A DNA stretch of 64,000 nt, taken from NCBI GenBank assembly GCA_934660915.1, contig CAKUIF010000001.1, positions 192,319 to 256,318 on the forward strand, written 5' to 3'. This DNA comes from an uncultured Olsenella sp. (GTDB lineage: Bacteria > Actinomycetota > Coriobacteriia > Coriobacteriales > Atopobiaceae). Of this stretch, positions 7,856-55,488 are shown one piece after another. The position numbers were made by a program, and so were the translations under genes. Under the pieces are notes generated by a model. The model was not told where the DNA came from. It made no database searches and saw only the letters and a program-made list of their open reading frames with translations. Each line of letters starts with the position of its first letter. The first letter of the stretch is position 1.

Positions 7856-10141
7856 CTACGCGTTCTTCTGACGGTTGTAGTTGATGAGACAGCCGGCCTT
7901 GACGATGGCGCGCTCCTCAGGGGTCATGTCGGCGATGGCGAGCTTGACCTGCTCGACGGAACCGTCGGCGCGGACGACCCACGCAGCGATGTCCGAGAGG
8001 CCGCCGTCGAGCGTGGCGCGGATGCCGGGCACGAACACGTAGTCGCCGACCTCGAAGTTGGGCTCGCCCTCCATCTGGAAGGGCAGCATGCCCCAGTTCA
8101 TCACGTTGGAGCGATAGCGCTTGGTGGCGTACTCGCTGACGATGTTGGCGAGGCCGCCGATCACGCGCTGGCAGCTGGCGGCCTGCTCGCGGGCGGAGCC
8201 GTCGCCGGGCTTGACGGCGTAGACCATGCTGCCGTACTCGGTCGCCCTGGAGTCGGCCTCAACGCCCGCCGCGGCAAGCGCGCCGAACACGCCGACGAGC
8301 GCAGGGTCGGCCTCGGCGAGGTCCTCGCCGGCGACGCGGCGCTTCTCGACGGCGTCGACGGCCTTGGAGCGGCCGACGTACTCGGGGTCGCGGCGAGAGA
8401 GGGTGAACTCGGCCAGGCCGAGCGGGTTGGAGCGGTAGGAGCTCGTCTCGCCGGAGGGGATGAGCTCGTCGGTGGTGGTCACCGGGTCCATGATCTTGGA
8501 GCAGACCTTGAGCAGGATGTCCTGCGCGAGGGGCTCCATCGCGGGCCAGGGCTTGATGTTCGGGCCCTCAACCAGCGCGGCGTCGAGGTCCTCCTTGCCG
8601 AAGCCCCAGTAGACGCGCTTATCGTAGGGAGCGGAGTCGAAGTGGTACTCGCACTTCTCGTCCCAGGTCTCGTCGGGCAGGTCGGTGGCCGGGGTGAGGA
8701 CGCCGCCCGCGGCAGCGGTGGCCGCGATGGAGCGCGCGTCCATGAGCGCGACGGCCGAGAGCTGGCCGTTTCTGGGCTTGGAGCCCTCGCGGTTGGGGAA
8801 GTTGCGCGTGGTGTGGCGGATGGAGAGGCCGTTGTTCGCGGGCGTGTCGCCGGCGCCGAAGCACGGGCCGCAGAAGGCCGTGCGCACGATAGCGCCCGCC
8901 TCCATGAGATCGTAGATGTAGCCGCGGCGCGTGAGCTCGAGCGCGACCGGCTGGCTCGTGGGGTAGACCGCCAGCGAGAACTCGCCGCAGCCGATGTTGG
9001 CGCCCTTGAGCGCGCGGGCGGCCTGGACGACGGAGTCGTAGTTGCCGCCGGAACAGCCGGCGATCACGCCCTGCTGGACGTGGAGCTTGCCGTCGACGAC
9101 CTTGTCGAGCAGGCTGAAGTTGACCTTCGTGCCGCCGATGCGGGCCGCCTCGACCTCGACCTCGTGCAGGATGTCCTCGAGGTTCTCGTTGAGCTCGTCG
9201 ATAGTGAAGGCGTTCGACGGGTGGAAGGGCAGCGCGATCATGGGCTTGACCTCGGAGAGGTCGACCTCGACGCAGCCGTCGTAGTAGGCGACGTCAGCGG
9301 GCGCGAGCTTGCGGTACTCGTCGCCGCGGCCGTGCTCGGAGAGGAACGCGTGGGTGTCCTCGTCGGTGGCCCAGATGGACGAGAGGCAGGTGGTCTCGGT
9401 GGTCATGACGTCGATGCCGTTGCGGTAGTCGGTCGTCATGCTCGCGATGCCGGGGCCCACGAACTCCATGACCTTGTTCTTGACGTAGCCCTTGGCGAAG
9501 ACCGCGCGGACGATGGCGAGCGCCACGTCGTGCGGGCCGACGCCGGGGCGCGGGGCGCCCTTGAGGTAGATGGCGACGACACCGGGGTAGGCGACGTCGT
9601 AGGTGTCCTGCAGCAGCTGCTTGGCCAGCTCGCCGCCGCCCTCGCCCACGGCCATGGTGCCCAGGGCGCCGTAGCGGGTGTGGGAGTCGGAGCCGATGAT
9701 CATCTTTCCGCAGCCGGCGAAGTTCTCGCGCATGAAGGAGTGGATGACCGCGATGTGGGGCGGAACGAAGATGCCGCCGTACTTCTTTGCGGCGGAGAGG
9801 CCGAAGACGTGGTCATCCTCGTTGATGGTGCCGCCGACGGCGCACAGCGAGTTGTGGCAGTTGGTGAGCACATAGGGGATCGGGAACTTCTCCATGCCCG
9901 AAGCGCGCGCCGTCTGGATGATGCCGACGAAGGTGATGTCGTGGCTCGCCATGGCGTCGAAGCGGATCTTTAGCATATTGGGATCGCCCGAGGTATTGTG
10001 CGCCTGGAGGATGGAGTAGGCGATGGTGCCGCGGCGGGCCTCCTCGGCCGCGGTGGCGATGCCAGCCTCGGCCGCCTGGCTCGCGGGGATGACCTCGTCA
10101 CCGTTGCGCAGGAAGACGCCCTCGTCGTACAGCTTGACCAT
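7856..10141 (-). CDS. Aconitase-family Fe-S hydro-lyase (aconitate hydratase-like, 761 aa)
   Basis: IGSDSHT and CGPCFG-type aconitase Fe-S cluster motifs in the 761-aa ORF. RBS GGGGGAGAG. Confidence 0.78.
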
Positions 10142-12495: not shown

Positions 12496-12569
12496 ACCGA
12501 TTAGCAACCGAAAACGGTGCATACGCCCTACCAGAGGTCCGTATGCACCGTTTTCGGTTGCTAATCGAC
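12496..12569. repeat. Hairpin repeat family R1 copy 1 (29-bp perfect arms CCGATTAGCAACCGAAAACGGTGCATACG)
   Basis: Perfect inverted repeat seen directly. Preceded by CCTTCTTGCC...GCCGCCAAAACAA leader shared with copy 2. Confidence 0.85.
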
Positions 12570-16600: not shown

Positions 16601-16676
16601 ACCGATTAGCAACCGAAACCGGTGCAAAAAGCTGGAAAGAAGGGCTTTTGCGCCGGTTTCGGTTGCTAATCGACCG
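16601..16676. repeat. Hairpin repeat family R1 copy 2
   Basis: ACCGATTAGCAACCGAAACCGGTGCAAAA / TTTTGCGCCGGTTTCGGTTGCTAATCG arms. Loop contains GAAAGAAGGGCTTTTGC. Same leader CCTTCTTGCCG...GCCGCCAAACAA as copy 1. Confidence 0.85.
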
Positions 16677-19467: not shown

Positions 19468-19503
19468 CCGGGCGGGTCGGGGAAATCCTCGGCCCGCTTT
19501 TTG
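19468..19503 (+). terminator. Candidate xpt terminator (imperfect GC stem plus T6)
   Basis: GGGCGGGTCGGGGAAATCCTCGGCCCGC followed by TTTTTT. Confidence 0.45.
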
Positions 19504-19587
19504 GGACAAAAGGGACGGGGTATTCTGTCCCAACTTGTGGAGACGCTCCACATCTTGGGACAGAATACCCCGTCCCTTTTGTCCCAA
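19501..19587. repeat. Perfect 33-bp inverted repeat with palindromic 21-bp spacer (nested or cruciform-capable palindrome)
   Basis: TTGGGACAAAAGGGACGGGGTATTCTGTCCCAA - CTTGTGGAGACGCTCCACATC - exact reverse complement. Each arm itself ends in TTGGGACA/TGTCCCAA. Confidence 0.9.
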
Positions 19588-19647: not shown

Positions 19648-19983
19648 ATGTGTGAAGAGCCCAAAGGCCCCATCCCCGTCGGAGAGGCACTCGAGGAGCT
19701 GCCGGACGAGGAGCTGCTCTACGACCTCGCCGACCTCTTCAAGGTCTTCTCGGACACGACCCGCATAAAGATCCTCTTTGCCCTCATGGGACGCGAGCTG
19801 TGCGTCGCCGACATCGCCGAGGCCACCGGCTCCACCCAATCGGCCGTCTCCCACCAGCTGCGCACGCTCAAGCAGGCTCACCTCGTCAAGTTCGAGCGCG
19901 ACGGCCGCAACATCGTCTACTCGCTCGCCGACAACCACGTCTACACCATGCTCAACCAGGGCATGAGCCACATCTGCGAATAA
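19648..19983 (+). CDS. ArsR/SmtB-family metalloregulator (CadC/CzrA-like)
   Basis: 111 aa. ArsR-type HTH region (TRIKILFALMG...SAVSHQLRTLK). N-terminal Cys2 and C-terminal HICE motif. Confidence 0.8.
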   Translation: MCEEPKGPIPVGEALEELPDEELLYDLADLFKVFSDTTRIKILFALMGRELCVADIAEATGSTQSAVSHQLRTLKQAHLVKFERDGRNIVYSLADNHVYTMLNQGMSHICE

Positions 19984-29480: not shown

Positions 29481-29750
29481 CGGGACCGTCGGTAAGACCG
29501 GCGAACCACTGCGCCAGAATCGCCGACCGTCGGTAAGACCGGCTGCCCGCTGCGCCAAAACCCGGGAGCGTCGGTATCCGCAGCCGGGTTTCCACGCGCT
29601 GATAATACCGACGCTCCCCGATTCCCGCGCACAGCACGGGCCGCCTTACCGACGGTCGAGGTTTTAGGCGCAGACCCTACCGACGCTCCCGGTTTCTCGC
29701 GCAGCCGGCGTCGCGATTTACCGACGCTCTCGTTATCCCGCGCAGCCGGC
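29481..29750. repeat. Degenerate ~41-bp repeat array: 3 forward units (ACCGTCGGTAAGACCGG...CTGCGCCA..) then 4 inverted units (..GCGCAG...TACCGACG.TC)
   Basis: Read directly in the MFS / isochorismatase intergenic region. Not CRISPR (mixed orientation, no conserved repeat/unique spacer alternation). Confidence 0.8.
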
Positions 29751-29816
29751 GGCAATCGCGCCGATGTCCCGTCATTTGGCAAGAAGGGCCTCGCCCGCCG
29801 GCGCCCCCGCAGGCAC

Positions 29817-35495: not shown

Positions 35496-35606
35496 CCCTC
35501 TTGATCGCGAACCAACTGGTTAATAATAGCCGCAACCCATAGCTGCCGACATACAAGTCAATTGCAAACCAAAGACGGCAACACGGCGCTTGATTCAAAT
35601 TACTGA

Positions 35607-35730
35607 GCGAAGTCGGTATCCTTTTTCGAAAACCTTGGGTAGACCAGCACAGATACTTGCTAAACAGCAGGGTTTTGATACTTTATCGATACCTCTACTC
35701 AGGGTTTTGAAATTCAGATACCGACTTCGC
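35607..35730. repeat. Hairpin repeat family R3 copy A (~36-bp imperfect arms GCGAAGTCGGTATCCTTTTTCGAAAACCTTGGGTAG, ~52-nt loop)
   Basis: Read directly. The 5' arm is near-identical to the 5' arm of copy B at 36845. Confidence 0.8.
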
Positions 35731-35774
35731 ATGTTATTTGCTCTTTAGCGCCCCTCAGACCGAGAGGACATCGC

Positions 35775-36833
35775 ATGGAAACGGTTTTCAGCGGCCCGTC
35801 GGCCTTCAAATACTATCGAACACCACCGCAGGTCCTTGCGCTCTGCCACGAACTGCCCATGTCGCAGGACCGCGCCACACGCACCGCCTTCCCCAACCAC
35901 CCGACCGCAAAAGCCGTGCTCGGGCAGACGGTGCATACGCTCGTGACGAGCAAATCCGAGCAAACAGGGGCCAAGTACGTAAAGCAGCACCTATGGAAAG
36001 GGCCGCGTCCCTCAGTCGACATATTCGAAGACCCCGTGATCGGCACGCTGACCTCGCCGTTATTCACCCTCTTGACCCTGGCGCGCGACTACAACGCCAT
36101 CGAAGTCGCCATGGCAATGTATGAGTTATGCGGCAAGTTCTCGGTTTACGCACCGTCCCCGGAGATCGAAACGTTGCTTCCGTCCCCGCAAGATGCTCAA
36201 CGGCTCGGATTCGGTTGGAACCGAGTGACGGGAACCGACGGACGACCGAGTTCGTTATGGATCCGCGAGCCGATCATCGAGCTCGGCGACCTCAAGGGAT
36301 TCGTCGACGAGATCAAGGGGATGCGCGGATCTACGACGTTTGCAAAGGCTGCCGATATGGTGCTCGGCGTCGTCCGCTCCCCGCTCGAGGCGAGCACCGC
36401 GATGCTCCTCGGGCTGCCTCGCTCAAAGGGCGGGTACGGTCTTAGCATCCAAACCGACAAGGTTATCCGACTCGGAGCGAGCGCAAGGGCAATGGTCGGC
36501 AAGGATTACCTCGTCGCAGATATCTATGTTGAGTCAAAGGATGGCAGGCACGCGCTCGACATCGAGTGCCAAGGAGAAACCGTTCATTCGGGTATCGGCG
36601 CACGAATCTCCGACGCGGACCGTGCGTGCGCCATCGAGGCGTCGGGCGTCGACATCCTCTATTTGACCGAACGCCAACTGAAGGATGCCGACAACCTCGC
36701 GCTCTTTATCGAATTGGTCGAGGGAAGGCTCCACGAGAAGATGCCTGCGAGGACAGAGCGTATGAAAAACACCGAGCAAGAGCTCCGCTACCACCTTTTC
36801 CAGAATTGGGAAACCCTTTGCGGCGTCTCCTAG
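35775..36833 (+). CDS. Hypothetical protein (352 aa). C-terminal region resembles a DUF559 / Vsr-like (PD-(D/E)xK-fold) domain, N-terminal ~230 aa unknown.
   Basis: C-terminal ALDIECQGETVHSGIGARISDADRACAIEASGVDILYLTERQL resembles the DUF559 consensus as I recall it (EvDG..H....D..R...L...G..vlR.t). Lower GC than the flanks. Recognition by memory only, not verified. Confidence 0.5.
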   Translation: METVFSGPSAFKYYRTPPQVLALCHELPMSQDRATRTAFPNHPTAKAVLGQTVHTLVTSKSEQTGAKYVKQHLWKGPRPSVDIFEDPVIGTLTSPLFTLLTLARDYNAIEVAMAMYELCGKFSVYAPSPEIETLLPSPQDAQRLGFGWNRVTGTDGRPSSLWIREPIIELGDLKGFVDEIKGMRGSTTFAKAADMVLGVVRSPLEASTAMLLGLPRSKGGYGLSIQTDKVIRLGASARAMVGKDYLVADIYVESKDGRHALDIECQGETVHSGIGARISDADRACAIEASGVDILYLTERQLKDADNLALFIELVEGRLHEKMPARTERMKNTEQELRYHLFQNWETLCGVS

Positions 36834-36844
36834 ATCAATTACTG

Positions 36845-36972
36845 TGCGAAGTCGGTATCCTTTTTCGAAAACCTTGAGTAGCCAATCAAAAACAGGCGGC
36901 AAAACCCCAGGAAATGAGGTTCTGCCGCCTGTTATACTCGCACTTCCTGAATTAGGATACCGACTTCGCGCA
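36845..36972. repeat. Hairpin repeat family R3 copy B (17-19-bp arms, nested inner hairpin, T6 tail)
   Basis: TGCGAAGTCGGTATCCTTTTTCGAAAACCTTGAGTAG ... AGGATACCGACTTCGCGCA followed by GTTTTTT. Likely also terminates the upstream gene. Confidence 0.8.
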
Positions 36973-37010
36973 GTTTTTTGCCGATGACGCTGGAAAACCC
37001 GAGGAACCGA

Positions 37011-43371: not shown

Positions 43372-43442
43372 CGATTAGCAACGAAAACCGGTGCAAAACG
43401 CCGCGAAGAAGGGCTTTTGCACCGGTTTCGGTTGCTAATCGA
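43372..43442. repeat. Hairpin repeat family R1 copy 3 (opposite orientation to copies 1-2)
   Basis: GCGATTAGCAACGAAAACCGGTGCAAAACGCCGCGAAGAAGGGCTTTTGCACCGGTTTCGGTTGCTAATCG. Downstream GGCAAGAAG...CTTCTTGCC tail. Confidence 0.85.
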
Positions 43443-43524: not shown

Positions 43525-44325
43525 CTAGAGATTTCCCGGTTCGAACTCGTCGATATACGCCTCGATAACGGCGGATCCGGCATCCGACGACGACTGCGGG
43601 TAGCTGAACTGGATGCCGTTGACGTAATCGCCACCCACGTACTGCTTGGCGTAGCACTCGGTACCGTCCTCCTCGACCCACGACGCGACGGCCCAGGTGC
43701 TTCCCATGGCTTTGTACGAGACGTCGTGGGCTGAGGCGTACGAGTCGAGCACGGAGGAGGGCGTCTCGCTAAGGGCGTTGGCGCTGCCCCACACGCGGAC
43801 CTCAATGCCGGATGAGGGCTCTCGGAAGGTCACTCCGTCGCCGTTATCGGAAGCGTCGACGAGCTTGTAGCTCGCAGGGAGCGCGACCTTGTAGCCGTAG
43901 CGATCGTTCATATATGTAAGCTTTCCGGAGGCAACGGTCACGTCGCTTTGCGCGGCAAAGAGCGCGTCGTCTTGGTCGAAGCCGGGTTCTTGGGCGGCAT
44001 CGCCCGAGCCAGAGACCGCGCCCGAGCCGTTCGCCTCCGCCGTTGCCGTATCCTGGGCTGTGCCCGCACCGGACCCGGCCTGCGATTGCGCGGGCTGCGA
44101 CTGTGAAGGCAGCGTCGAGCTAAGGCATATGAAGGCGAAGGCGCCGACTGCCATGACCACGAGGGCGCCTGCGACCACGGCGATTATCTGCACAACGCTC
44201 GGGTGCAGGGGCGTCGAGGACTTTTGTCGGATCTTTCCCGTGGGAAAATCGTCCTGCTGCGCGCCGCACTCCGGGCAGTACTGCGCCCCGTCTTCCAGCT
44301 CGTGCCCGCAGTTCATGCAATACAT
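43525..44325 (-). CDS. Zinc-ribbon (CxxC...CxxC) N-terminal domain membrane protein with Ser/Gln/Ala-rich linker and extracellular domain
   Basis: MYCMNCGHELEDGAQYCPECG then a TM segment (IIAVVAGALVVMAVGAFAFI). Start at internal Met of ORF 43525..44373. Confidence 0.6.
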   Translation of the reverse strand: MYCMNCGHELEDGAQYCPECGAQQDDFPTGKIRQKSSTPLHPSVVQIIAVVAGALVVMAVGAFAFICLSSTLPSQSQPAQSQAGSGAGTAQDTATAEANGSGAVSGSGDAAQEPGFDQDDALFAAQSDVTVASGKLTYMNDRYGYKVALPASYKLVDASDNGDGVTFREPSSGIEVRVWGSANALSETPSSVLDSYASAHDVSYKAMGSTWAVASWVEEDGTECYAKQYVGGDYVNGIQFSYPQSSSDAGSAVIEAYIDEFEPGNL

Positions 44326-44440
44326 GGCCGACTCCGATCCCTTCTTTGCCTGTTCGTTCCAACAGTAGCGCAAACGATTATTGGAGGAGACCCCGCAGAC
44401 AACAACGGCGCCTTATCCGTCATAGTTGGCTTCGCGGGAG

Positions 44441-44510
44441 GATTAGCAACGAAAACCGGTGCAAAGAGCCGCAAAGAAGAGCTTTTGCGCCGGTTTCGGT
44501 TGCTAATCGA
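44441..44510. repeat. Hairpin repeat family R1 copy 4
   Basis: GATTAGCAACGAAAACCGGTGCAAAGAGCCGCAAAGAAGAGCTTTTGCGCCGGTTTCGGTTGCTAATCG. GGCAAGAAG x2 downstream. Confidence 0.85.
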
Positions 44511-45630: not shown

Positions 45631-46919
45631 CAGGCCTCGCCCCCCTTCGGGTCGGCTGAGTCAGACAGGTCGTTTTGGCTTGCCAAATCAGACAGGCTGA
45701 ATTGACAGGCAGCGAGGCCAACGCGGACTGCCTCGGCGCGGACGGAGCGGACGATGGCGGCCGCGGCGTAGTCGACGTCCTCCTCGGTCGTCTGTCGCCC
45801 GAGCGTGAGGCGCAGGCTGCCCGCGGCGACCTCGGCCGGGGCGCCCATGGCGGCGAGCACGTGGGAAGAGCGCATCTTGCTCGCGGCGCACGCCGAGCCC
45901 GTGCCCACGCTCACGCCCTCGCGCTCGAGCGCGATCACGAGCCGCCTGGCCTCGAGCCCCGGGAAGCTCACGTGAAGAAGCCCGGGAAGCCGCAGCTTCG
46001 CTGCGCGCGGGCCGGACACGACAGCCCAGTCGAACTCTGCGCACACCGCGCGCTGCAGCCGGTCGCGAAGCCCCGCGAGGCGGCGCGCCTCCGCCTGACG
46101 ACGCGCGCCCGCGAGCTCGAGTGCCTTCGCGAACCCGACGACGCCGGCGACGTTCTCGGTGCCCGAGCGAACGCCGCCCTCCTGCCCGCCGCCGAGCACG
46201 AGCGGCCGCAGCGCCACGTCGTCGGAGGCCCACAGCAGGCCGACCTGCTTGGGCCCGTAAATCTTCGCCGCCGAGATGGTAAGAAGGTCGCACCCCAGCG
46301 TGCCGACGTTGACGGCGAGGGCGCCCGCGGCCTGCGACGCGTCGGTGTGCAGCCAGATCGGGGCCGTCTCCCCCGCCGCCAGGCGGCGCTCGCGCTCCGC
46401 GGCGACCACACGCGCAATCTCGCGCACGGGCTGTACGGCCCCCACCTCGCCGTTGGCGAGCTCGACCGAGACGAGCCTCGTCGCAGGCGTGATGGCCGCC
46501 GCCACGTCGGCCGCGCGCACGCGCCCGTCCGCACCGACGCCCACGACCGCGCACCCGCCGCCCACAGCCGCGGCGCACGCGAGCACGCTCTCGTGCTCGG
46601 CCGCGTCGATGACCACGTGGGCCCCGTCTCCCGCCGCCGCGAAGGCCAGGTTGTTCGCCTCGGTGGCGCCGGCCGTGAAGGTCACGTTGCCGGGACGCGC
46701 GCCGATTACGTGCGCGACGGCCGCGCGGGCGGCATCGACGTCCGCACGCACGGCGCGGGCGGCGGCGTACGGCGCGCTCGGGTTCTCGAACTTCTCGCTG
46801 AAATACGGGAGCATCGCCGCGACGACCTCGGGATCCATGGGCGTCGCGGCGGCATAGTCCAGGTATACGGAGCGGCGGGCGCACCCCTGCCCCGCGCCCC
46901 ACTCGGAATGATTCGTCAC
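45630..46919 (-). CDS. Cysteine desulfurase (NifS/IscS family, PLP-dependent)
   Basis: GTG start at 46919 (GAGGGA RBS). VYLDYAAATP N-terminus. PLP Lys in SAAKIYGPKQVG. ATGA overlap with mnmA. C-terminal ~28 aa are encoded by an R2 repeat (see findings). Confidence 0.78.
   Translation of the reverse strand: MTNHSEWGAGQGCARRSVYLDYAAATPMDPEVVAAMLPYFSEKFENPSAPYAAARAVRADVDAARAAVAHVIGARPGNVTFTAGATEANNLAFAAAGDGAHVVIDAAEHESVLACAAAVGGGCAVVGVGADGRVRAADVAAAITPATRLVSVELANGEVGAVQPVREIARVVAAERERRLAAGETAPIWLHTDASQAAGALAVNVGTLGCDLLTISAAKIYGPKQVGLLWASDDVALRPLVLGGGQEGGVRSGTENVAGVVGFAKALELAGARRQAEARRLAGLRDRLQRAVCAEFDWAVVSGPRAAKLRLPGLLHVSFPGLEARRLVIALEREGVSVGTGSACAASKMRSSHVLAAMGAPAEVAAGSLRLTLGRQTTEEDVDYAAAAIVRSVRAEAVRVGLAACQFSLSDLASQNDLSDSADPKGGEA
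45655..45720. repeat. R2-family tandem CAGACAGG repeats embedded in the cysteine desulfurase 3' end
   Basis: GAGTCAGACAGGTCGTTTTGGCTTGCCAAATCAGACAGGCTGAATTGACAGGCAG. Shares a 17-mer with 22577-22593. Confidence 0.5.
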
Positions 46920-47827
46920 TTGGGGTCCCTCGCGTCGCCTATCTTCAGGTTCTCGAACCGGCCGGCTATGAAATCGTCGGTGTAGTTCGTGTCCACCCAC
47001 CGCTCGAAGGCGTTCGCGGGCGGCACGCCGAGGTCGCGCGCGGTCTTTCGGTTGAAGCACACGAGCGTCATGCCGATGTCCGCCACCAGGTACACCGCCA
47101 CCAGCGTCACAAAGAGAACCTGCCGGCGCGAGGTGGGCATACCGATCTGGTAGAGCAGCTTGGGCATGATGACCCGCGTCCACACGATGCCGAGCAAACC
47201 CCAGAAAAAGAGGAACCGCCACGCCACCCACTGCGTGATGTGGTCCGGCAGGTGCAGGTACGTCCACGACTCGGCGTTGAAGAGCACTTCCATGGCCCAG
47301 CCGGTGACCTGCTCGAGGCCGCCGCCGATTGCCGCGGAGATGAGGAAAATCTGCCACGTCTTTGCCCCGTGTCGGCGCATCTGGAAGCACAGCACAGTAA
47401 GAAGGACCGCGCCCGTGCCGTACAACGGGCTGAAGGGCCCCCACACCAGGCCGACGCGGTTCTCGGTGAGGCCTGCGGTCACGAGCATCCAGATCTCCTC
47501 GAGCAAAAGCCCCGCCATGCAGCCGACGAAGAAGATGATGATGACCTGGTACCAACTGAGATTCATGTTGTCGAGATACTCGTCGACGGCATCGTTGGTG
47601 GCCTGCCAGCGGGCGAACACGCGGGCCAGGCCACGCTTCCGGCTCGCGCGCGCCATCTCGCGCTCGAGCGCGTCGTCGGACTCGACCATCGCGCGCACGG
47701 CGGGCTCGAGGCTCTCCTCGTCAATGCTTTGGCCGCGCTGCAGCCACTCGGAGAAGTAGACGATCACTCGCACGAAGCCGCGCACGATCTCGATGAAAAA
47801 GACAAGCAGCAGAAGGGTATAGAGCAT
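46916..47827 (-). CDS. Polytopic membrane protein of unknown function
   Basis: 303 aa, ~6 TM. 4-nt overlap with the desulfurase start. Confidence 0.55.
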   Translation of the reverse strand: MLYTLLLLVFFIEIVRGFVRVIVYFSEWLQRGQSIDEESLEPAVRAMVESDDALEREMARASRKRGLARVFARWQATNDAVDEYLDNMNLSWYQVIIIFFVGCMAGLLLEEIWMLVTAGLTENRVGLVWGPFSPLYGTGAVLLTVLCFQMRRHGAKTWQIFLISAAIGGGLEQVTGWAMEVLFNAESWTYLHLPDHITQWVAWRFLFFWGLLGIVWTRVIMPKLLYQIGMPTSRRQVLFVTLVAVYLVADIGMTLVCFNRKTARDLGVPPANAFERWVDTNYTDDFIAGRFENLKIGDARDPK

Positions 47828-47927
47828 AGGCTCGGCTCCAACCGACGCGTTTTGCGGACATGCCTATGGTAGCGCAGGCAGCGCCGTGGCACGAAAAAGG
47901 GCACCCCGAAGGGTGCCCGTCATTTCC

Positions 47928-48001
47928 TGGAGGCGAAGCCCGGATTCGAACCGGGGGTGAGGGCTTTGCAGGCCCCTGCCTTACCACTTGGCCACTTCGC
48001 C
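47928..48001 (-). tRNA. tRNA-Cys (GCA)
   Basis: GGCGAAGTGGCCAAGTGGTAAGGCAGGGGCCTGCAAAGCCC...CTTCGCCTCCA. Cloverleaf and anticodon-loop CCTGCAAAG read by hand. CCA encoded. Confidence 0.85.
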
Positions 48002-48040
48002 ATATGAAAGAGGCCGGAGTGACCGGCCTCGGTGCTCACA

Positions 48041-48116
48041 TGGAGCGGGCTACGGGGTTCGAACCCGCGACCTCCACCTTGGCAAGGTGGCGCGCTACCA
48101 ACTGCGCTAAGCCCGC
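48041..48116 (-). tRNA. tRNA-Gly (GCC), copy 1
   Basis: GCGGGCTTAGCGCAGTTGGTAGCGCGCCACCTTGCCAAGGTGGAGGTCGCGGGTTCGAACCCCGTAGCCCGCTCCA. Confidence 0.85.
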
Positions 48117-48269
48117 AAGCGCAAGGGATAATATACGGGAAGCTTCAGCCTTGCGCAAGCCCAAATTTCAAATTCGTTGGAAAAAAATTTGGGGAGCTGA
48201 GCTTCACACGGAACGGAGCACGGCCGATCTGCACGAAATTGCAGCTTGGGGCCTATATCTATCCGCATC

Positions 48270-48478
48270 ACAGTGTTCACGCTTGACGTCGAGCCCACAT
48301 CCCACCCTTCCGCAGTGTCCATGCTTGGAGCAGAGCCCATCTCTCCCCGTCCCGCAGTGTTCCAGAGCACTGCGACGGATACCAATGTGGGCTCCGGGCA
48401 ACTTCTCAACACTATACCGCGGGGAGATGTGGGCTCCAGCAGAGCGGGAAACACTGCGGCTTCGGTAAACCTGGGCTC
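48270..48478. repeat. Degenerate ~28-bp repeat array between the two tRNA-Gly genes: 2 forward units (GAGCCCA..TC.C.CC...CCGCAGTGTT) then 3 inverted units (AACACTGCG...GTGGGCTC)
   Basis: Read directly. Same forward-then-inverted architecture as the 29481-29750 array, but a different sequence. Confidence 0.75.
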
Positions 48479-48526
48479 GCGGCGATCGCCCGCCCTTGGC
48501 AAGAAGCGCGCACACGCCCATGCGCA

Positions 48527-48562
48527 ATTAAAAAAGCGGTCGACCCGAAGGTCGACCGCCTG
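48527..48562 (-). terminator. Rho-independent terminator downstream of tRNA-Gly copy 2
   Basis: Minus strand: GGTCGACC-TTCG-GGTCGACCGC then TTTTTTAATTG. Confidence 0.6.
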
Positions 48563-48569
48563 CAATTCA

Positions 48570-48645
48570 TGGAGCGGGCTACGGGGTTCGAACCCGCGAC
48601 CTCCACCTTGGCAAGGTGGCGCGCTACCAACTGCGCTAAGCCCGC
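48570..48645 (-). tRNA. tRNA-Gly (GCC), copy 2 (identical to copy 1)
   Basis: Identical 76-nt sequence to 48041-48116. Confidence 0.85.
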
Positions 48646-48825
48646 GTGACGCAAGAAGAAACTATACACGACCATCCAAAGGCGCGCAAGAACTTTTTTT
48701 CGACTTTCTTTGACGAGGGCGCAATACGACAATGAGCACACGTTGCCGCCTTTCCTACGAGTAGGATAGCGGCACCGGCATGTGAGCCAACCGCTCGTCA
48801 ATCGCCATGCTTTGGAGGCCGCACA

Positions 48826-50751
48826 TTGAGCACGGGAGCCACTCAAGAGTCTGATCGTACAGCGCTTTTGCTGCGGCAAGCTCCATTGTTGCTCGCCATG
48901 TGCTTTCCCCTTGTGCCTCACCATTACGCATTCGTCGAGTTCTCCGTTCACGTCATGTGCGCGCCTTTGGCCTTCTCTCCGATTGCCGTCGCTTTTGCCT
49001 TTGCGCTTGTATCCAGCCCAAGAGTCCGGCATTCCGGCTTCCTTAGGCTCAGCTCCAAGTTTCTTCTTGCCTCTGCCCTGATTCTCATAGGATGCGACAT
49101 CGCCTATGCTGCCTGGAGGCTCGGCTATGACATCCAGATACCGATAGCATTCCTGCAGCCCATAGACGTCTTTGCTCAATCGTTTCTCTTAACATCGAGC
49201 GCCTTCATGTCCGCATGCAGAGCAATCGAAAACGACCTTCCTCGCGATTCAAACCAGAACACAAATGCCGCGACCTTCGCGTTCGCGCTTGGCGCCCTTC
49301 TTCCCCGAGTGCTCGGCTTGCTCAGTTATGCATTTCAAGGCTCAATTCCCGGGCAAATCGCCGTGTGTCTCGTCTCCGGGGCGACCGGATACTGCCTGCT
49401 CAATAGATTCAATCGATGCGCCAGCAATTCCGACCCCTTAATCACGGCGCCCCGCTCCGCTTTGCTCGGGCTCTTGTTCTCTTCCGCATTCGACGAGCTC
49501 ATGCTGACCGCCCTGTGCAGCGCGCAGGTCAATCTCGACTCTCAAAGCGCCGTCGCGCTCAGAGGCGCTGCGCTCGGCTACGCCATAGCCTTCGCCGCTT
49601 ATATCCTCATCGCTTTGCTTATAAGTCTCATTCTTTGGCTACTCCTGCGCGCTCGGCCGCGGGATGGCGGAGGCGTTTCGAGCGAGACCTCGGCACCAAC
49701 TCATAATCTCGAATCACTCAGCGAGCGCCAACGGCAGGTTTTGACCATGGCCTCCAGTGGCCTGTCCGATGCTGAAATCGCCCAGTCTCTTGGCCTGACG
49801 CCCGGCACCGTAAGCAACCATAAACGTCGAGGCCTCGAACGACTCGGTCTTTCCGGAGTCGCCGATCTCCGCGAGAACGACCGCGCCCAGGACGCGCAGG
49901 CCGTTGCCGAGCTTCCGCCGCGGCGCCCCGTCGCCAAGGTGATCCTCGGGATCGGCATCGCAGCGCTTATCTGCATTGCGCCCTTTATCCCCCTCGCTCC
50001 CGACATCGCATATTGCCTCGCTCTTTTCCTTGGCCTCATTACGTGCCTTGCCTCAATGATCCTGCCTCAATCGCAATCGCGCGGGTTCACGGATCGGCAG
50101 AACAAAGAAGTTCAGGAGCTGCAGTCAAACGTTTGCGCTTTCTCCTTTGTCCTCGGCATAGGGATTGCCCTGTGCTGGTCCTTCTCTAGCACTGTCACCG
50201 CCATTGCGGTCTGCGCATCGCTTTTTCTCATGGTCGGCGGAGGTTTTTCTGGTCGGATCGCGACCAAGGGCACCCCGAGCCCCCATAGCAGCGGCCTCCG
50301 AATCGCGGACGATACGACCCTTTCCACGGCCCTTGCGTTTATGGCGGCGGGGTTGATTCTCGCCGCGCACGCATCTCAGCTTCTCGGCATGCTGCCCGCT
50401 ACAGCGTCACGCTGCCATCTCGTAACCCAACTATGCGTTGCCATCACGGCCGTGAGGCTAACCGGAATTCTGATACGCCTCGGTCGAGTCAACGCCGCCA
50501 GCGAAGCGCCCGTGGACGTCTCGACGCATACAAAGGTCTTCCTTAGATCAAAGGGCGTCGGAGACCTGGAGGCCGAGGTTCTCACGCTCTCGGCACAGGG
50601 CTACACAAGACCTCAGATCTGCGACCTGCTTCACATCGCCGCGGGCACCGTGAACAGCTGTCGAGCCTCCGCCTACAAGAAACTCGGCATCCACAGCAAG
50701 GGCGAGCTCCTCGAATTGCTTGCGGAAACCGCAGATAAAGACTGTCGTTAA
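48826..50751 (+). CDS. Membrane-embedded LuxR-family regulator with two tandem modules (each ~6 TM plus C-terminal LuxR-type HTH)
   Basis: HTH 1 LSERQRQVLTMASSGLSDAEIAQSLGLTPGTVSNHKRRGLERLG (aa ~296-340). HTH 2 LTLSAQGYTRPQICDLLHIAAGTVNSCRASAYKKLGI (aa ~590-628). Hydrophobic segments precede each. Lower GC than the core. Confidence 0.7.
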   Translation: MSTGATQESDRTALLLRQAPLLLAMCFPLVPHHYAFVEFSVHVMCAPLAFSPIAVAFAFALVSSPRVRHSGFLRLSSKFLLASALILIGCDIAYAAWRLGYDIQIPIAFLQPIDVFAQSFLLTSSAFMSACRAIENDLPRDSNQNTNAATFAFALGALLPRVLGLLSYAFQGSIPGQIAVCLVSGATGYCLLNRFNRCASNSDPLITAPRSALLGLLFSSAFDELMLTALCSAQVNLDSQSAVALRGAALGYAIAFAAYILIALLISLILWLLLRARPRDGGGVSSETSAPTHNLESLSERQRQVLTMASSGLSDAEIAQSLGLTPGTVSNHKRRGLERLGLSGVADLRENDRAQDAQAVAELPPRRPVAKVILGIGIAALICIAPFIPLAPDIAYCLALFLGLITCLASMILPQSQSRGFTDRQNKEVQELQSNVCAFSFVLGIGIALCWSFSSTVTAIAVCASLFLMVGGGFSGRIATKGTPSPHSSGLRIADDTTLSTALAFMAAGLILAAHASQLLGMLPATASRCHLVTQLCVAITAVRLTGILIRLGRVNAASEAPVDVSTHTKVFLRSKGVGDLEAEVLTLSAQGYTRPQICDLLHIAAGTVNSCRASAYKKLGIHSKGELLELLAETADKDCR

Positions 50752-50850
50752 AACCGCATATCCCCTCGACACCAAACGTCGCGGCCTCCATAGATAGACT
50801 CCTTCTCGATCGTTTGCGCCCAATTGGAGCCCCGAGAGAACGGAGGCGCG

Positions 50851-51495
50851 ATGCTGGTCGAAATGAGGGATTACACGAAGACGCTCCAGGGCGTCACCGT
50901 GCTGGACAAGGTAAATCTCGCATTGGAAAGCGGGAAGATCTACGGCGTCAAGGGAAAGAACGGCTCGGGCAAAACGATGCTTTTGCGAGCATTGGCCGGC
51001 CTGATCTATCCGACGGCCGGCTCCCTTCTTATCGATGGCAAGCCGCTCGAAAAAGGCCATTTTCCTCCGAGCGTCGGTGTGCTCATCGAGACCCCTTCAT
51101 TTGTGCCGAACAGAACCGGGCTATCGAACCTCCTGGAGATCTCCGAGATCAAGGGCTTGATATCGGACCAAACGGTGGCCCGTGCGCTTCAAGCCGTCGG
51201 CCTCGACCCCAAAGACCGCAGGCCGGTCAGAAAGTACTCGCTGGGAATGCGCCAGCGACTTGGAATAGCCTGTGCGATCATGGAGCGGCCCTCGCTTCTG
51301 CTTCTGGACGAGCCGGTGAACGCCCTCGATCCTGCCGGCGTCGAGATGGCATGCAGGCTCTTTGCCGACGCAAGGCGCCACGACGCGATCGTCGTCATAG
51401 CCTGTCACGACTCGGAGGAGCTCGAGGAGCTCTTCGACGAGCGCATCGACCTTTCAGACGGCAGAATTGTCGGGAGGCGAAGCCCCCATGAATAG
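50851..51495 (+). CDS. ABC transporter ATP-binding protein (ABC-2 / lantibiotic-immunity-like NBD)
   Basis: Walker A GKNGSGKTM, signature YSLGMRQRL, Walker B LLLLDEP. Start could be 50824. Confidence 0.75.
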   Translation: MLVEMRDYTKTLQGVTVLDKVNLALESGKIYGVKGKNGSGKTMLLRALAGLIYPTAGSLLIDGKPLEKGHFPPSVGVLIETPSFVPNRTGLSNLLEISEIKGLISDQTVARALQAVGLDPKDRRPVRKYSLGMRQRLGIACAIMERPSLLLLDEPVNALDPAGVEMACRLFADARRHDAIVVIACHDSEELEELFDERIDLSDGRIVGRRSPHE

Positions 51496-52072
51496 GCGCA
51501 AGAAGAAAACTAGGGCAGTCCTTGCTGCACTTCTTGCGGCCCTGACAGCCTTCCTCTACGTCCACCGTTTCAAAGAAGTGAACGCCGGAATCAATTACTC
51601 AGTCAAGAATGCCCAAGTCGGAGAGCCCGTCCAAGCCAATCTAAGCGGCGCATCCACCGGCTCGCTTTCAACTATTACGGTCGTAAGCGCTCGCGAACTC
51701 ACGCCAGACGAGCTCGCCGAACTCTCGGCCCGGCCTTCCCTCGAAGGCTATCTGGGCAATGACGCCCATATCGTGCTCGTCTTCATCGCCACCGATGATA
51801 ACGAGGCGAGCACGGCGGCGGCAACGACCGGCGTCTATCTCCAATCCGGGGTCACCTCCTGGCAATGCGACCCGATGATCGGCATCGAGCTGGCGGAAGA
51901 TCCGCTGTCCACGATTGAGTCCGACGGAGCCGTCATCACTCTGGCGTATTTGGTCTCTCCCGCCCGATCCGGCGGGCAGGCCTGGGTTGGCCTGAACAAC
52001 AAGGGCTTCTCTTTGGTCACCTCTACGTGGCCTCAACGGGTGTCCGTCGAGCTTGGGAGGATTGAACCGTGA
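51488..52072 (+). CDS. Membrane-anchored protein of unknown function (N-terminal TM, extracytoplasmic domain)
   Basis: MNRRKKKTRAVLAALLAALTAFLYV. 8-nt overlap with the ABC ATPase stop. Confidence 0.5.
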   Translation: MNRRKKKTRAVLAALLAALTAFLYVHRFKEVNAGINYSVKNAQVGEPVQANLSGASTGSLSTITVVSARELTPDELAELSARPSLEGYLGNDAHIVLVFIATDDNEASTAAATTGVYLQSGVTSWQCDPMIGIELAEDPLSTIESDGAVITLAYLVSPARSGGQAWVGLNNKGFSLVTSTWPQRVSVELGRIEP

Positions 52073-52890
52073 TCATTTACGAGCTGAGGCGCGCTTTTAC
52101 CGGATATGGGTTCAGGATTGCCCTTTTTGCCGCGCTCTGCCTTTCGGCGCTACAGATTTGCTTCGTACCGCTGCAGTACTGCATCGGTGATGCATGGGGC
52201 CCATGGAGGTCAGGCGCATACGGCATGCCACCGTCAGTCTGGGCCTCCTGGATAGGCGGCACCCCGCAGTCCGTCTGGTCGGTTCTTTTCTATTACCTCG
52301 TGCCGCTCCTCTGCTGTGCCCCGTTCGCCTCTTCAGCCTGCACAGACCTCAACGGAGGTTTGGCCCCCGTGCTCGCCTCGCGTTCGAGCGCACGCGAGTA
52401 CGTGTTCTCCAAGATGCTGGCAAGCTGCGCCTCCGGGGTGTTCCTTTTTGTGGTCCCCCAGGTCTTAAACCTGCTTGCCACCATGCTGCTCGTGCCCTTG
52501 ATTCCCCCAGACCCCGTTACGTTGCTGTTCCCCATCACCTACCGGGCCGCCGCAGCCGAGCTGTACTATTCCTCTCCCCTGTTCTACACGCTGCTCTTCT
52601 TGGCAGTCGGATCCGCTTTCGTCTGTCTCCTGAACTGTGTTTGCATCGCCTGCTCGAGTCGGTTGCGGTCCCGTCTGCTCATCTCGTTTTTGCCGTTTTT
52701 GGGGTGCATGCTGCTGAATTTCCTCCTAGACACGATTGGCCTAGCCCGCTACTCCCCCGAAAATATCCTGAGCCCTTACCAGCAATACCCGGGAATGAAC
52801 GTCGGCCTTGTGTTCGCGCTTCTCGCTCTTTTGCTTGCCGTGGTTGTGGGGTACGCGGCAATCAAATCGCAAAGGGCTGATGTCTTGTGA
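52069..52890 (+). CDS. ABC-2-type permease-like membrane protein 1
   Basis: GTGA overlap with the previous gene. ~6 TM segments. Confidence 0.6.
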   Translation: MIIYELRRAFTGYGFRIALFAALCLSALQICFVPLQYCIGDAWGPWRSGAYGMPPSVWASWIGGTPQSVWSVLFYYLVPLLCCAPFASSACTDLNGGLAPVLASRSSAREYVFSKMLASCASGVFLFVVPQVLNLLATMLLVPLIPPDPVTLLFPITYRAAAAELYYSSPLFYTLLFLAVGSAFVCLLNCVCIACSSRLRSRLLISFLPFLGCMLLNFLLDTIGLARYSPENILSPYQQYPGMNVGLVFALLALLLAVVVGYAAIKSQRADVL

Positions 52891-53717
52891 GGTCGCATGG
52901 CAAGAGGCGCCGACCTCGGATATCGAGGGCCTTGGCGCTGGCCCGCCACTTTGCGCGGCCCGGGCGCATGGCCTCGCGCGGGTTCATGATCGCGTTCGCC
53001 GTCTTCGACTCTGCGGCAATCGCGCTGTCATCGAATGCGCACGGTTATTCCTCGGCTTCTCCGCTCGATGCTATTTTGCTCCTGTTCTACGGCGAGCCCG
53101 AGCACGCGCCGTCCTCACGCTTTTATTTGACCATCCCCATAACATGGCTCATGGGTCAGGCCCTCTTCTTTGCTTTTATCGCTTGCGCGCTCTTTTGGGC
53201 CACCGGCGGCCGAGGAAAGCAATACCTGCTGCGGGCCGGGTCCTCAAGGACATGGTGGTCCTCCCTATACCTAGCCGTGTTGGCGATGACGCTTGCGCGC
53301 TTCCTCATATCCCTAGCGGTTTGCGCGGCCTTCCCAGCCGTTTCACATTTGCTCAGTATCGAGCCGGGCACAGGCGAGCTCTCCCCTGTTTGCTCATTAG
53401 GATTCTCGGCCCAAGTCGCGCTGCATATGGCCCTCTCGGTCTTGCTGCCGCAAATCCTGCTTGCCCAGCTCTTGGCTTTCTTGTCCCTTTATATGGGAGC
53501 GTTCTGGTCGTTCGCATGCGCCGCGGCGTTTTCCGCCCTCTCGGCGCTCGCGCCGGGCGCCTTGCTCTTTGGTGACTGGAGCATGCTCGCCAGAAACGCG
53601 ATTTGCCGTTCCGGAGGCCTGAGCCCAGTGGTCATCGAAGCGTTTTCCTTTCTTCTTTGCGCGTTGCTCTGGGCAATCGGCGCCCTCAAGGTGACGTCGC
53701 GCGTCGAGCTTATGTAG
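52887..53717 (+). CDS. ABC-2-type permease-like membrane protein 2
   Basis: ATGA overlap with the previous gene. ~6 TM. Start may be internal Met MASRGFMIAF. Confidence 0.55.
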   Translation: MRSHGKRRRPRISRALALARHFARPGRMASRGFMIAFAVFDSAAIALSSNAHGYSSASPLDAILLLFYGEPEHAPSSRFYLTIPITWLMGQALFFAFIACALFWATGGRGKQYLLRAGSSRTWWSSLYLAVLAMTLARFLISLAVCAAFPAVSHLLSIEPGTGELSPVCSLGFSAQVALHMALSVLLPQILLAQLLAFLSLYMGAFWSFACAAAFSALSALAPGALLFGDWSMLARNAICRSGGLSPVVIEAFSFLLCALLWAIGALKVTSRVELM

Positions 53718-53743
53718 GAACCCGTCTCAACCATCGGAGCCGC

Positions 53744-54574
53744 ATGTTGTCTCACGAAAAGAAGCTATTAAGGTCTTGCCGCGCAAACCGAGGCCTGGTG
53801 TTATCCCTGCTGATTATCTCCGCAATCGTCGTTCGGTATAACCAGACGGGATTTGCGCTGTCTCTACCTGCGAGAAGCCGCCCGTCCCCCATTGACTTCC
53901 TGATCTTTGATATGGGGACGGATGGTCAGTTGAGCATCGCCTGGCTCCTTGCCCCGCTTTGTTCGATGGCACTTGTGTCTTTGGCGCTTGGCCCCGAGGC
54001 GCACGAGATGGCGCTTCTTGGCCATGGCTCGCTGCGAAGGCTATGGCTTTCCGAGCTGATCGACGCCATCTTGGCAGCCGCGCATGTATCGGTCGCCGTA
54101 TTTCTCATTTCCTTGTTCTGCGGGTTTGCAGCGGCGGACGCTCACAGCGCCGGAGCCGCCAGCAGCGTCTTCGCAATGATGACGGGGCAGGAAATAAACC
54201 CGAGCGCAAGTCAGGTATTTGTTGCGCTCGCTTGCTTGGCTCACTTGTTGTCGGTGACCTTCTTTGTAACGCTGATATATCTGGGCACAAGAAGAATTAC
54301 CGTGAGCCGGCTGGGCTCATTCGCCTTAACCCTTGTGCTTCTGCTTCCGAGCGTCACGGATGGAAACTCGTTTGTAAGCGACCTTTTGCGGAACCTCCCC
54401 GGCATCGCATTCGTCGAGAACCCCATCCATGCTTTCGTCACGTTCCAGAGCGTCGATTGGCAGCGATGGCTTGGCGGCGAGGCCCCGCATCTTTGGTTTT
54501 TGCCCCTGATGTCCCTGCTGTTAGCCGCAGTCGTGTACGGACTCTCAAATCGGCAAGAAGTGCCTTGGCGGTAA
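53744..54574 (+). CDS. ABC-2-type permease-like membrane protein 3
   Basis: GGAG RBS. ~6 TM. Internal start in ORF 53603..54574. Confidence 0.55.
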   Translation: MLSHEKKLLRSCRANRGLVLSLLIISAIVVRYNQTGFALSLPARSRPSPIDFLIFDMGTDGQLSIAWLLAPLCSMALVSLALGPEAHEMALLGHGSLRRLWLSELIDAILAAAHVSVAVFLISLFCGFAAADAHSAGAASSVFAMMTGQEINPSASQVFVALACLAHLLSVTFFVTLIYLGTRRITVSRLGSFALTLVLLLPSVTDGNSFVSDLLRNLPGIAFVENPIHAFVTFQSVDWQRWLGGEAPHLWFLPLMSLLLAAVVYGLSNRQEVPWR

Positions 54575-54625: not shown

Positions 54626-55423
54626 CTAGCCCGCCAAAGACGAGAGCCGCTCCGCGCCCGCAGGCTGTGCCGAGTACATCTTCACCAGCCGGACGACGGT
54701 GCCGGAACCCGAGGTCTTGGGGCCGATGGTCACCGAGTCGGCCAAAAGCCGCATGAGCTTGATCCCGCGCCCGCGCTCGGCGAACGAGTCTTCTCCGGCA
54801 TCGGCGGCAGCCCCACCCTCGCCGGCGCAACCGCAGCCGCCCGGCAAGAAGCCCTCGCCGCAGTCTGCCACGTCGACCACGACGCGGTCCGCGTACGCCG
54901 CGACCGTAACCAGCACTCCATCGGCGCAGGTGTGGTCCACGGCGTTGCCCACGGCCTCGCCCGACGCGAGGTTCATGTCAAAGAGGTCGCCGTCGGAGAG
55001 TGGCAGCTCGGCGATCATGCGCTGCAGGCGATTGCGTGCGCAGTCGAGCTTGTCTTTATCCACCCGAAACGTCGTTCGCCACTCGGGCAGGGTGTTCGCG
55101 GGGAGCTCCGGCACCTCAGTAGAGTCGCCCGCGCGCGTGACAGGCACGAGGTCCGCCATCCGCATGACGACGAGCGCCCGGTACACTCTGTCGGCCACGT
55201 TGGTGAGGGAAATGAGCCCGCCCACTTGGCGCATGCGGCGCATCTCGCGCAGGATCATCCCGAAGCCGGCCGAGTCGGCGTAGGAGGCGTTGGCCATGTT
55301 GAGCACGACGCGGCGGCAACCGGAGTCGATGAGCTCGTCGACGAGCTCGCGCACCTTGGGCGCCGACCTCACGTCGAGGTCGCCGTCCACGCTCACCTGC
55401 GCTATGTTCGTCTTCGTCGTCAT
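54626..55423 (-). CDS. Fused anti-sigma-factor antagonist (STAS, RsbV/SpoIIAA-like) plus anti-sigma-factor serine kinase (HATPase_c, RsbW/SpoIIAB-like)
   Basis: N-terminal STAS domain with a conserved Ser context (LNMANASYADSAGFGMI). C-terminal GHKL region (GEAVGNAVDHT...DCGEGF...GRGIKLM). Confidence 0.68.
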   Translation of the reverse strand: MTTKTNIAQVSVDGDLDVRSAPKVRELVDELIDSGCRRVVLNMANASYADSAGFGMILREMRRMRQVGGLISLTNVADRVYRALVVMRMADLVPVTRAGDSTEVPELPANTLPEWRTTFRVDKDKLDCARNRLQRMIAELPLSDGDLFDMNLASGEAVGNAVDHTCADGVLVTVAAYADRVVVDVADCGEGFLPGGCGCAGEGGAAADAGEDSFAERGRGIKLMRLLADSVTIGPKTSGSGTVVRLVKMYSAQPAGAERLSSLAG

Positions 55424-55488
55424 ATCCAGAGCATGCCCAGCAAGAAACCCCGCTAAACACGCAGTTTGCCCAGGGGGCACAAATTGGC

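Follow-up and report, generated by a model that had tools for sequence, protein, structure and literature searches.

The duplicated tRNA-Gly(GCC) genes of an uncultured Olsenella: probable vertical paralogues beside a dispersed mirror-repeat array and a separately acquired LuxR/ABC block

We analysed a 64,000-nucleotide stretch of contig CAKUIF010000001.1 from an uncultured Olsenella sp. (positions 192,319 to 256,318; hereafter the window), in which two tRNA-Gly(GCC) genes next to a tRNA-Cys(GCA) gene enclose an array of forward and inverted repeats and lie beside a low-GC block with LuxR and ATP-binding cassette (ABC) genes. Three independent things probably stand side by side at this locus: vertically inherited tRNA-Gly paralogues, an array that is one copy of a lineage-specific dispersed repeat, and a LuxR/ABC block that was acquired separately. 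An earlier note on this DNA had read the tRNA duplication as the scar of a site-specific integration tied to the low-GC island. The features on which it drew, namely the two identical tRNA-Gly genes, the array, the adjoining tRNA-Cys and the low-GC block, were all confirmed with ARAGORN, Rfam, alignment and GC content. The scar hypothesis itself we reject on the sequence comparisons, because relatives carry the pair without the island, the copies cease to be identical 2 nt beyond the tRNA, the island stands on the 5′ side of the tRNA promoter, and neither an integrase, among the open reading frames scanned, nor a border repeat was found; the pair would thus be ancestral, and the island a separate acquisition.

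The comparison set comprised 44 loci from species-representative genomes (numbered with the prefix L), fetched with the membrane-protein gene (46916-47827) that adjoins tRNA-Cys; all fetched loci were scanned for tRNA genes and aligned at the nucleotide level. By that membrane protein, the closest loci came from an uncultured Olsenella (L001, 97% aa) and from O. uli DSM 7084 (L008, 89% aa), which places the window in an Olsenella-like member of the Atopobiaceae (Coriobacteriia). In most Atopobiaceae the tRNA scan found a single Gly-Cys pair, ~4 kb from tRNA-Leu(GAG). Two tRNA-Gly copies, with spacers of 134 to ~270 nt, were found in the Olsenella/Paratractidigestivibacter group (L001, L008, L009 and L010), and both copies are also present in L004, L005 and L045-L052. 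The earlier note had held that the same two copies in relatives without the island would mark the duplication as ancestral, and this is the arrangement of L009 (Paratractidigestivibacter) and L010. In these two loci and in L005, the STAS/anti-sigma-kinase gene (homologue of 54626-55480) is followed after ~50-100 nt by the same promoter-like element and then by the distal tRNA-Gly, with no island in between.

Within the window, the distal copy (Gly-1) and the proximal copy (Gly-2) are 100% identical over 78 nt (48568-48645 and 48039-48116), that is, over the tRNA and 2 nt more, and their upstream flanks are unrelated (22/75 identities). All three tRNAs of the locus scored 66-71 bits in Rfam. 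Since the pair is kept in relatives independently of the neighbouring cargo and the flanks have diverged, the two genes may be taken as an old tandem pair of paralogues that the Olsenella/Paratractidigestivibacter clade received by vertical descent; their identity would then reflect constraint on the tRNA (selection or gene conversion) rather than a recent duplication. The 453 bp between them contain, in the tRNA sense, the Gly-1 terminator, the mirror array and a promoter-like element of Gly-2, which lies ~14 nt upstream of that gene. The latter element scored below a strict consensus promoter scan and was called from its conservation in L001, L008, L009, L010 and L005. The corresponding element of Gly-1 is kept also in genomes without the island. 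Each tRNA-Gly copy thus appears to have expression signals of its own, a promoter-like element in both cases and a terminator for Gly-1.

The island measures 5.8 kb and is flanked on one side by the stop codon of the STAS/kinase gene (54626-55480, minus strand) and on the other by the Gly-1 promoter-like element. GC at 48-54 kb is 0.58-0.60, compared with 0.64-0.74 in the flanks, and GC at third codon positions (GC3) is 0.65-0.74, compared with ~0.9 in neighbouring genes. The block recurs in L001 and L008 at ~87% nucleotide identity and is also present in L052, which has the 9.7-kb Leu-Gly spacing; it is absent from L005, L009, L010, L014 and L015. These data support a lineage-specific insertion of foreign composition, confined to the O. 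uli-like lineage. It would have been acquired horizontally, upstream of the distal tRNA promoter, leaving no signature of site-specific recombination. A Pfam scan of ~48 open reading frames (ORFs) of the window, including every ORF of 38.7-63.5 kb, identified no integrase, recombinase or transposase, which bears out the earlier statement that the window lacks an integrase. The tRNA 3′-end direct repeat that had been expected at the far island boundary was not found in the window: the 23-nt 3′ end of tRNA-Gly, with up to 3 mismatches allowed, matched just the two full genes and no partial copy, and no common word of at least 9 nt joined the two island borders. The ‘LuxR’ gene of the island (48826-50751) is one 641-codon ORF with two tandem modules, in each of which a GerE helix-turn-helix comes after a multi-span membrane region; no stop codon separates the modules.

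The locus resembles the islands and prophages that target tRNA genes through the attachment (att) sites of tyrosine integrases, in that a foreign, variably present block stands beside tRNAs and the tRNA sequence occurs twice. It differs from them in the missing integrase and truncated 3′ tRNA repeat, in the place of the island upstream of the tRNA promoter, and in a duplication that appears older than the island and is also found without it. For annotation, the lesson is that identical paired tRNA genes can adjoin a foreign-looking block without being an att scar; the comparative context decides. A complete opp-type oligopeptide ABC operon of 6.2-6.5 kb is located exactly between the tRNA-Gly copies in L004 (125-6346) and L005 (3107-9674), with no integrase-sized extra ORF seen; the opp label rests on 66-72% nucleotide similarity to the opp genes that the window itself carries at 59.4-62.8 kb and on ORF sizes, the L005 block lying outside the Pfam scan. 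The region of the tRNA-Gly pair is a hotspot for gene gain, with homologous recombination on the 76-nt repeats as a possible route.

The array between the tRNA-Gly genes consists of three forward units followed by three inverted ones (plus strand). The earlier note had recognised the array but had placed it at 48270-48478 with two forward and three inverted copies, so that its extent and count needed correction (Table 1). The register is composed of a 28-29-nt repeat and a 13-14-nt spacer, and the two boxes alternate approximately every 21 bp. The pattern GAGCCCA-N13-15-GCAGTGT, with at most one mismatch per box, matched four times in the array and nowhere else in the 64 kb. The six units are about equally diverged from one another (18-22 matches per 27-29 aligned positions, ~62-81%), with the divergence concentrated mid-unit. 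Among 35 distinct units from nine sequences, GAGCCCA (positions 1-7) and CGCAGTGT (positions 21-28) were conserved at 83-100%, with at least 91% given for the boxes, figures inflated in part by ascertainment, as the units were picked by these boxes; position 10 was invariant, and positions 12-20 were variable. Neither an internal palindrome nor a GTAG head is present in the 28-nt unit, GAGCCCACATCTCCCCGCnCCGCAGTGT. The spacers are alike within one arm and not complementary between the arms, which speaks against an origin by one inverted duplication of an arm. Neither this origin nor nested self-insertion is supported in its simple form; in the 48.3-kb type the central loop is also too short.

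Several other identities were considered for the array and discarded. A 107-codon ORF spans it, but the 41-nt register of sister arrays rules out a repeated peptide. Half of the units are inverted, the 13-14-nt spacers are alike within an arm and no cas domains were found, which excludes clustered regularly interspaced short palindromic repeats (CRISPR). A cluster of DnaA boxes was suggested by the resemblance of TGTGGGCTC to TGTGGACAA, but the other array types lack CCACA. Finally, TTGGCAAGAAG, which adjoins both arrays of the window, is neither an array-specific flank nor a tRNA anticodon mimic, as it represents the commonest 9-mer of the window and is common in coding DNA too.

Table 1. Features of the tRNA-Gly locus and related repeats, in window coordinates.
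Feature	Position	Strand	Details
Terminator-like hairpin after tRNA-Cys	47899-47918		
tRNA-Cys(GCA)	47928-48001	minus	ARAGORN and Rfam; final gene of the Gly-Cys transcription unit
tRNA-Gly(GCC), proximal copy (Gly-2)	48041-48116	minus	ARAGORN and Rfam
Promoter-like element of Gly-2	48130-48158	minus	TTGCGC (48153-48158), 17-nt spacer, TATATT (48130-48135)
Mirror (foldback) array	48249-48478		230 bp, strict 42-nt register, boxes GAGCCCA and GCAGTGT
Forward 29-nt units	48249-48277, 48291-48319, 48333-48361		First unit degenerate
Inverted units	48366-48394, 48408-48436, 48450-48478		
TTGGCAAGAAG	48496-48506		One copy of the over-represented word GGCAAGAAG/CTTCTTGCC; not array-specific
Intrinsic terminator of Gly-1	48534-48561	minus	12-bp stem, then T-run; kept in relatives
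tRNA-Gly(GCC), distal copy (Gly-1)	48570-48645	minus	ARAGORN and Rfam; identical to Gly-2
Promoter-like element of Gly-1	48661-48689	minus	TTGCGC, 17-nt spacer, TATAGT; putative, from conservation
Lineage-specific low-GC3 block	48826-54574	plus	LuxR/GerE ORF, ABC ATPase, four ORFs without Pfam match
Second mirror array	29481-29760		41-nt register, 3 forward and 4 inverted units, CTGCGCC-N12-GCGTCGGTA; between convergent major facilitator superfamily (MFS) and isochorismatase genes
CTTCTTGCC/GGCAAGAAG, example positions	12461, 12478, 16571, 24708, 25245, 29778, 41812, 43453, 43487, 44521, 44543, 48498		

A metagenome scan for two consecutive units returned eight contigs, six of which hold the same tRNA-Gly spacer in other strains (L045, L048, L049, L050, L051 and L052); with orthologous arrays in six independent contigs, the array is no chance pattern. 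L045 and L050 have 3+3 units, and their array is 91% identical to that of the window, compared with 92-98% for adjacent non-array DNA. L048, L049 and L052 also have 3+3 units, with one window unit missing and a new, mutually complementary inner pair. There are 4+3 units in L051, a single unit in L001 where the window has six, and no array in L009 and L010. The same box type occurs directly downstream of lysS, before a convergent DeoR gene, in L046 (3+3), L047 (3+2) and L067 (3+1), so that the counts across strains are 1, 3+1, 3+2, 3+3 and 4+3. One L047 unit combines parts of two L046 units, a chimera of the kind that unequal recombination would produce. The other Olsenella-like genomes examined have plain terminators after lysS and no array.

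L005, which belongs to a different species (87% aa), carries two arrays on one contig, in a 41-nt register and with 3+4 and 4+4 units. Their boxes, GAGCCCT...GCCCAGTAA, are alignable with GAGCCCA...GCGCAGTGT of the window. One of them lies directly after the distal tRNA-Gly terminator, the position of the array in the window; the other lies between a gene resembling lysylphosphatidylglycerol (LPG) synthase and an ABC exporter gene, and is conserved in L003. Each box type was thus seen at two or more loci, and the box type is common to the loci within a genome and differs between species; the case for a trans-acting recognition factor, or for recent spread within the genome, rests mainly on this pattern. 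In the same tRNA-Gly spacer of O. uli DSM 7084 (L008, ~9370-9450), six tandem 14-nt units (CTTGAGCCCGCGGG-like) stand in place of the 42-nt mirror array; each has a GAGCCC-like box, and 14 nt is one third of the 42-nt register. Other Atopobiaceae have different arrays by or near the tRNA-Cys/Gly locus (L036 3885-4356; L041 8870-9100; L029/L030/L032 ~9240-9490; L009 13270-13480), among them 52-nt direct units, ~21-nt forward and inverted units, 31-nt units with TTTCTCGCCAAG, and a 2+2 mirror array with 41-nt spacing.

The 64-kb window holds a second mirror array, at 29.5 kb, and the earlier note had proposed one generating mechanism for both. The two do form one architectural class; the tie to the tRNA duplication did not hold, as arrays also stand after lysS and between other genes. 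The topology at 29.5 kb is opposite to that of the 48.3-kb type, with the CTGCG ends facing outwards, and although the architecture is shared, homology is uncertain. The 29.5-kb array is kept as 4+3 units in L063, where isochorismatase is 95% identical, and was not found in the more distant species examined; a look-up by the window isochorismatase gave identical strains only. The 29.5-kb unit contains CGTC, but without a conserved stem inside the unit, and it resembles the terminal inverted repeat ACTGCGCGAAGTCGGTATCC of two ~130-nt elements of the kind known as miniature inverted-repeat transposable elements (MITEs). These MITE-like elements (35603-35732 and 36841-36975; terminal inverted repeat ACTG(C/T)GCGAAGTCGGTATCC) bracket an ORF without Pfam match (35775-36833, GC3 0.74). 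BLAST of the 29.5-kb array and of a MITE-like element against plasmids gave no match, nor did BLAST of the tRNA spacer against phages; viral contigs scanned for the two-unit pattern gave 0 matches, and Rfam at a permissive E-value returned nothing relevant.

Single-stranded, the arrays fold into one long hairpin, with z-scores against shuffled sequences of -10.2 for L046, -9.3 for the 29.5-kb array, -9.2 for the L005 array and -6.2 for L048. For L046, the complementarity of the mirror pairs F1-I3 and F3-I1 extends through the variable middle. The 48.3-kb copy of the window reached -2.8 with DNA parameters and -3.2 with RNA parameters. Because this copy has a terminator on one side and a promoter on the other, a role in RNA is less likely here than one at the DNA level or no role at all.

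We propose that a dispersed non-coding repeat, specific to the lineage, has placed a copy in the tRNA-Gly spacer; it is built of n units forward and then n inverted and could be extruded as a long imperfect hairpin. Such arrays would lodge downstream of terminators and gene 3′ ends, and recombination between adjacent units would add or remove units of 42 nt, while the two boxes stay constant across the loci of a genome. The boxes may be recognition sites for a trans-acting protein, either a transposase or recombinase or another DNA-binding protein, which would make the array a non-autonomous, MITE-like repeat, or one like the bacterial interspersed mosaic elements (BIMEs), with foldback arms. 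Such a non-autonomous element, recognised through its two boxes, is our best guess within the favoured explanation, at slightly less than an even chance. A broader proposal is tentative and rather unlikely: that the mirror arrays of Atopobiaceae (41/42-nt register) have boxes co-evolving with a putative dedicated sequence-specific protein (transposase/recombinase or chromosome-organising factor), and that these lineages have, separately, 9-mer dialects similar to DNA uptake sequences and uptake signal sequences (DUS/USS; see below).

A number of observations weigh against a mobile or protein-recognised repeat, beginning with the ascertainment in the box conservation noted above. Non-complementary spacers between the arms are explained by none of the simple origin models, and the weak folding of the window copy (z ~ -3) makes a structural role at this site doubtful. 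Only two or three loci were seen per repeat type, and the assignment of the lysS loci to the species of the window is an inference from the common box type, plus the OLRJ01 prefix for L047 and L049. No target-site duplication was evident at the array borders, where the empty sites of relatives are too diverged to be defined cleanly. The window ORFs scanned include no transposase, insertion-sequence (IS) gene, RAYT (the transposase associated with repetitive extragenic palindromic, REP, sequences) or other candidate partner gene.

The main rival, to which we give a low probability, holds that the arrays are purely local palindromic minisatellites, generated and homogenised by replication slippage and hairpin-templated repair without a trans-acting protein or mobility; the similar registers would then follow from a structural optimum of about four helical turns. 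It agrees with the variation by whole 42-nt units between strains, the chimeric L047 unit, the often perfect hairpins at array centres, the likeness of spacers within an arm but not between arms, and the failure to find a partner gene. Against it, different loci of one genome have the same boxes (L005; the tRNA and lysS loci), and the boxes differ between species; moreover, neutral slippage does not predict boxes far better conserved than the repeat interior.

Very unlikely is a cis-regulatory platform of phased protein-binding sites, ~21 bp apart, for the Gly-2/Cys promoter or the LuxR genes. The spacing would place the alternating boxes on the same helix face, and the array lies ~90 bp upstream of the promoter-like -35 of Gly-2 and ~350 bp from the LuxR ORF; yet L001, which has the same promoter and LuxR block, has one unit only, L009 and L010 have no array, and other family members stand between convergent genes or after lysS, away from promoters. 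Slimmer still are the chances of the mobile-element integration at the tRNA that the earlier note envisaged, for which the array would be a remnant att arm or set of arm-type sites and LuxR/ABC the cargo: the variably present low-GC3 block by tRNA genes, the opp operon placed exactly between the tRNA-Gly copies in L004 and L005, and the superficial likeness of forward and inverted sites to integrase arm-type sites speak for it, and against it stand two full-length tRNA-Gly copies with unrelated flanks, the island-free pair in L009 and L010, the island 5′ of the tRNA promoter, the missing partial tRNA and border repeats, the Pfam-scanned ORFs without an integrase, and the same array family at loci unrelated to tRNA genes.

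Among known repeats, the mirror arrays come closest to REP/BIME, BOX or MITE repeats, with arms of the foldback type. REP/BIME and REPIN-RAYT systems are described from Enterobacteria and Pseudomonas (PMC3116915, PMC3337134), including GTAG/CGTC-tagged REPs (PMC3733652). Like these, the mirror arrays are short, species-specific and extragenic, typically stand at gene 3′ ends, form hairpins from inverted copies, vary in copy number and co-vary in sequence across the loci of a genome. They differ in that the unit is no palindrome, forward and inverted units stand in blocks (F F F I I I) instead of alternating, and the 41/42-nt register is fixed, with spacers; in addition, the 48.3-kb type lacks the GTAG head and no RAYT gene was found in the window. 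Several 20-30-bp sites, in one orientation at one end and inverted at the other, also characterise multi-site transposon ends (Tn7, Mu, IS21-type). Their spacing is irregular, however, and they flank kilobases of cargo with a transposase, whereas the present arrays showed neither TG/CA termini nor target duplications. BOX elements of Streptococcus pneumoniae have the structure boxA-boxB(n)-boxC. BOX and BrickBuilt elements are likewise small, intergenic, non-coding and species-restricted, with variable tandem units and inverted-repeat ends; their tandem units are all direct, between short inverted ends, whereas here tandem units form both inverted arms. BrickBuilt, a MITE of Porphyromonas gingivalis with an internal minisatellite, is a comparable bacterial case (PMC4596501). 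The nearest in architecture are the Drosophila Foldback (FB) and Galileo transposons (PMC3573991), with inverted arms of tandem subrepeats, variable arm length and little or no centre; these are eukaryotic, of kilobase scale and with a known transposase family (P-like for Galileo), whereas the present arrays are bacterial, 130-290 bp long and without a known transposase. That size, the inverted arms and the non-coding nature, coding being excluded by the 41-nt register of related arrays, also liken them to MITEs.

Full-text literature searches returned no description of such repeats in Olsenella or Coriobacteriia, which is weak evidence of novelty. The mirror arrays are strain-variable, hairpin-forming repeats of common gut and oral Coriobacteriia and could serve strain typing; they will also mislead programs that search for CRISPR or tandem repeats and interrupt short-read assemblies. 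Should a cognate protein exist, they would represent a new bacterial mobile-element or DNA-organisation system.

The word CTTCTTGCC/GGCAAGAAG ranks first in frequency among the 9-mers of the window (28 copies), and its 8-mer core has 32 copies, compared with a mean of 3.2 for 8-mers of equal composition. Twelve copies fall in the intergenic 18% of the sequence, frequently paired in inverted orientation where genes end (3′), and the two strands show no skew. A one-base variant, CTTCTCGCC, occurs in sister lineages: per kb, CTTCTTGCC and CTTCTCGCC reach 0.44 vs 0.08 in the window and 0.06 vs 0.49 in L057-L060. In other genera the signal may stem partly from Glu-Lys codons. The pattern looks like lineage ‘dialects’ of the DUS/USS style. 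In an actinobacterial gut lineage, such dialects could point to DNA uptake with a sequence bias or to some other recognition system acting across the genome, and the lineage-specific 9-mer is a lead for a genome-wide signal, such as one for uptake or recombination, in a group not known to have one.

Two further kinds of repeat were observed in the window. A ~70-nt near-perfect hairpin repeat (CGATTAGCAACCGAAAACGGTGCA...) has four copies (12498-12567, 16603-16672, 43372-43441 and 44441-44508), pairs of which bracket a low-GC3 block at 12.5-16.4 kb (MerR, DUF4230 and unknown ORFs) and a zinc-ribbon gene (43525-44373), as if delimiting cassettes. Closely upstream of an ArsR-family gene (19648-19983) and a P-type ATPase there is a palindrome (19501-19587) whose 42-nt arms, 95% complementary, enclose a 3-nt loop; it may be an operator or terminator structure.

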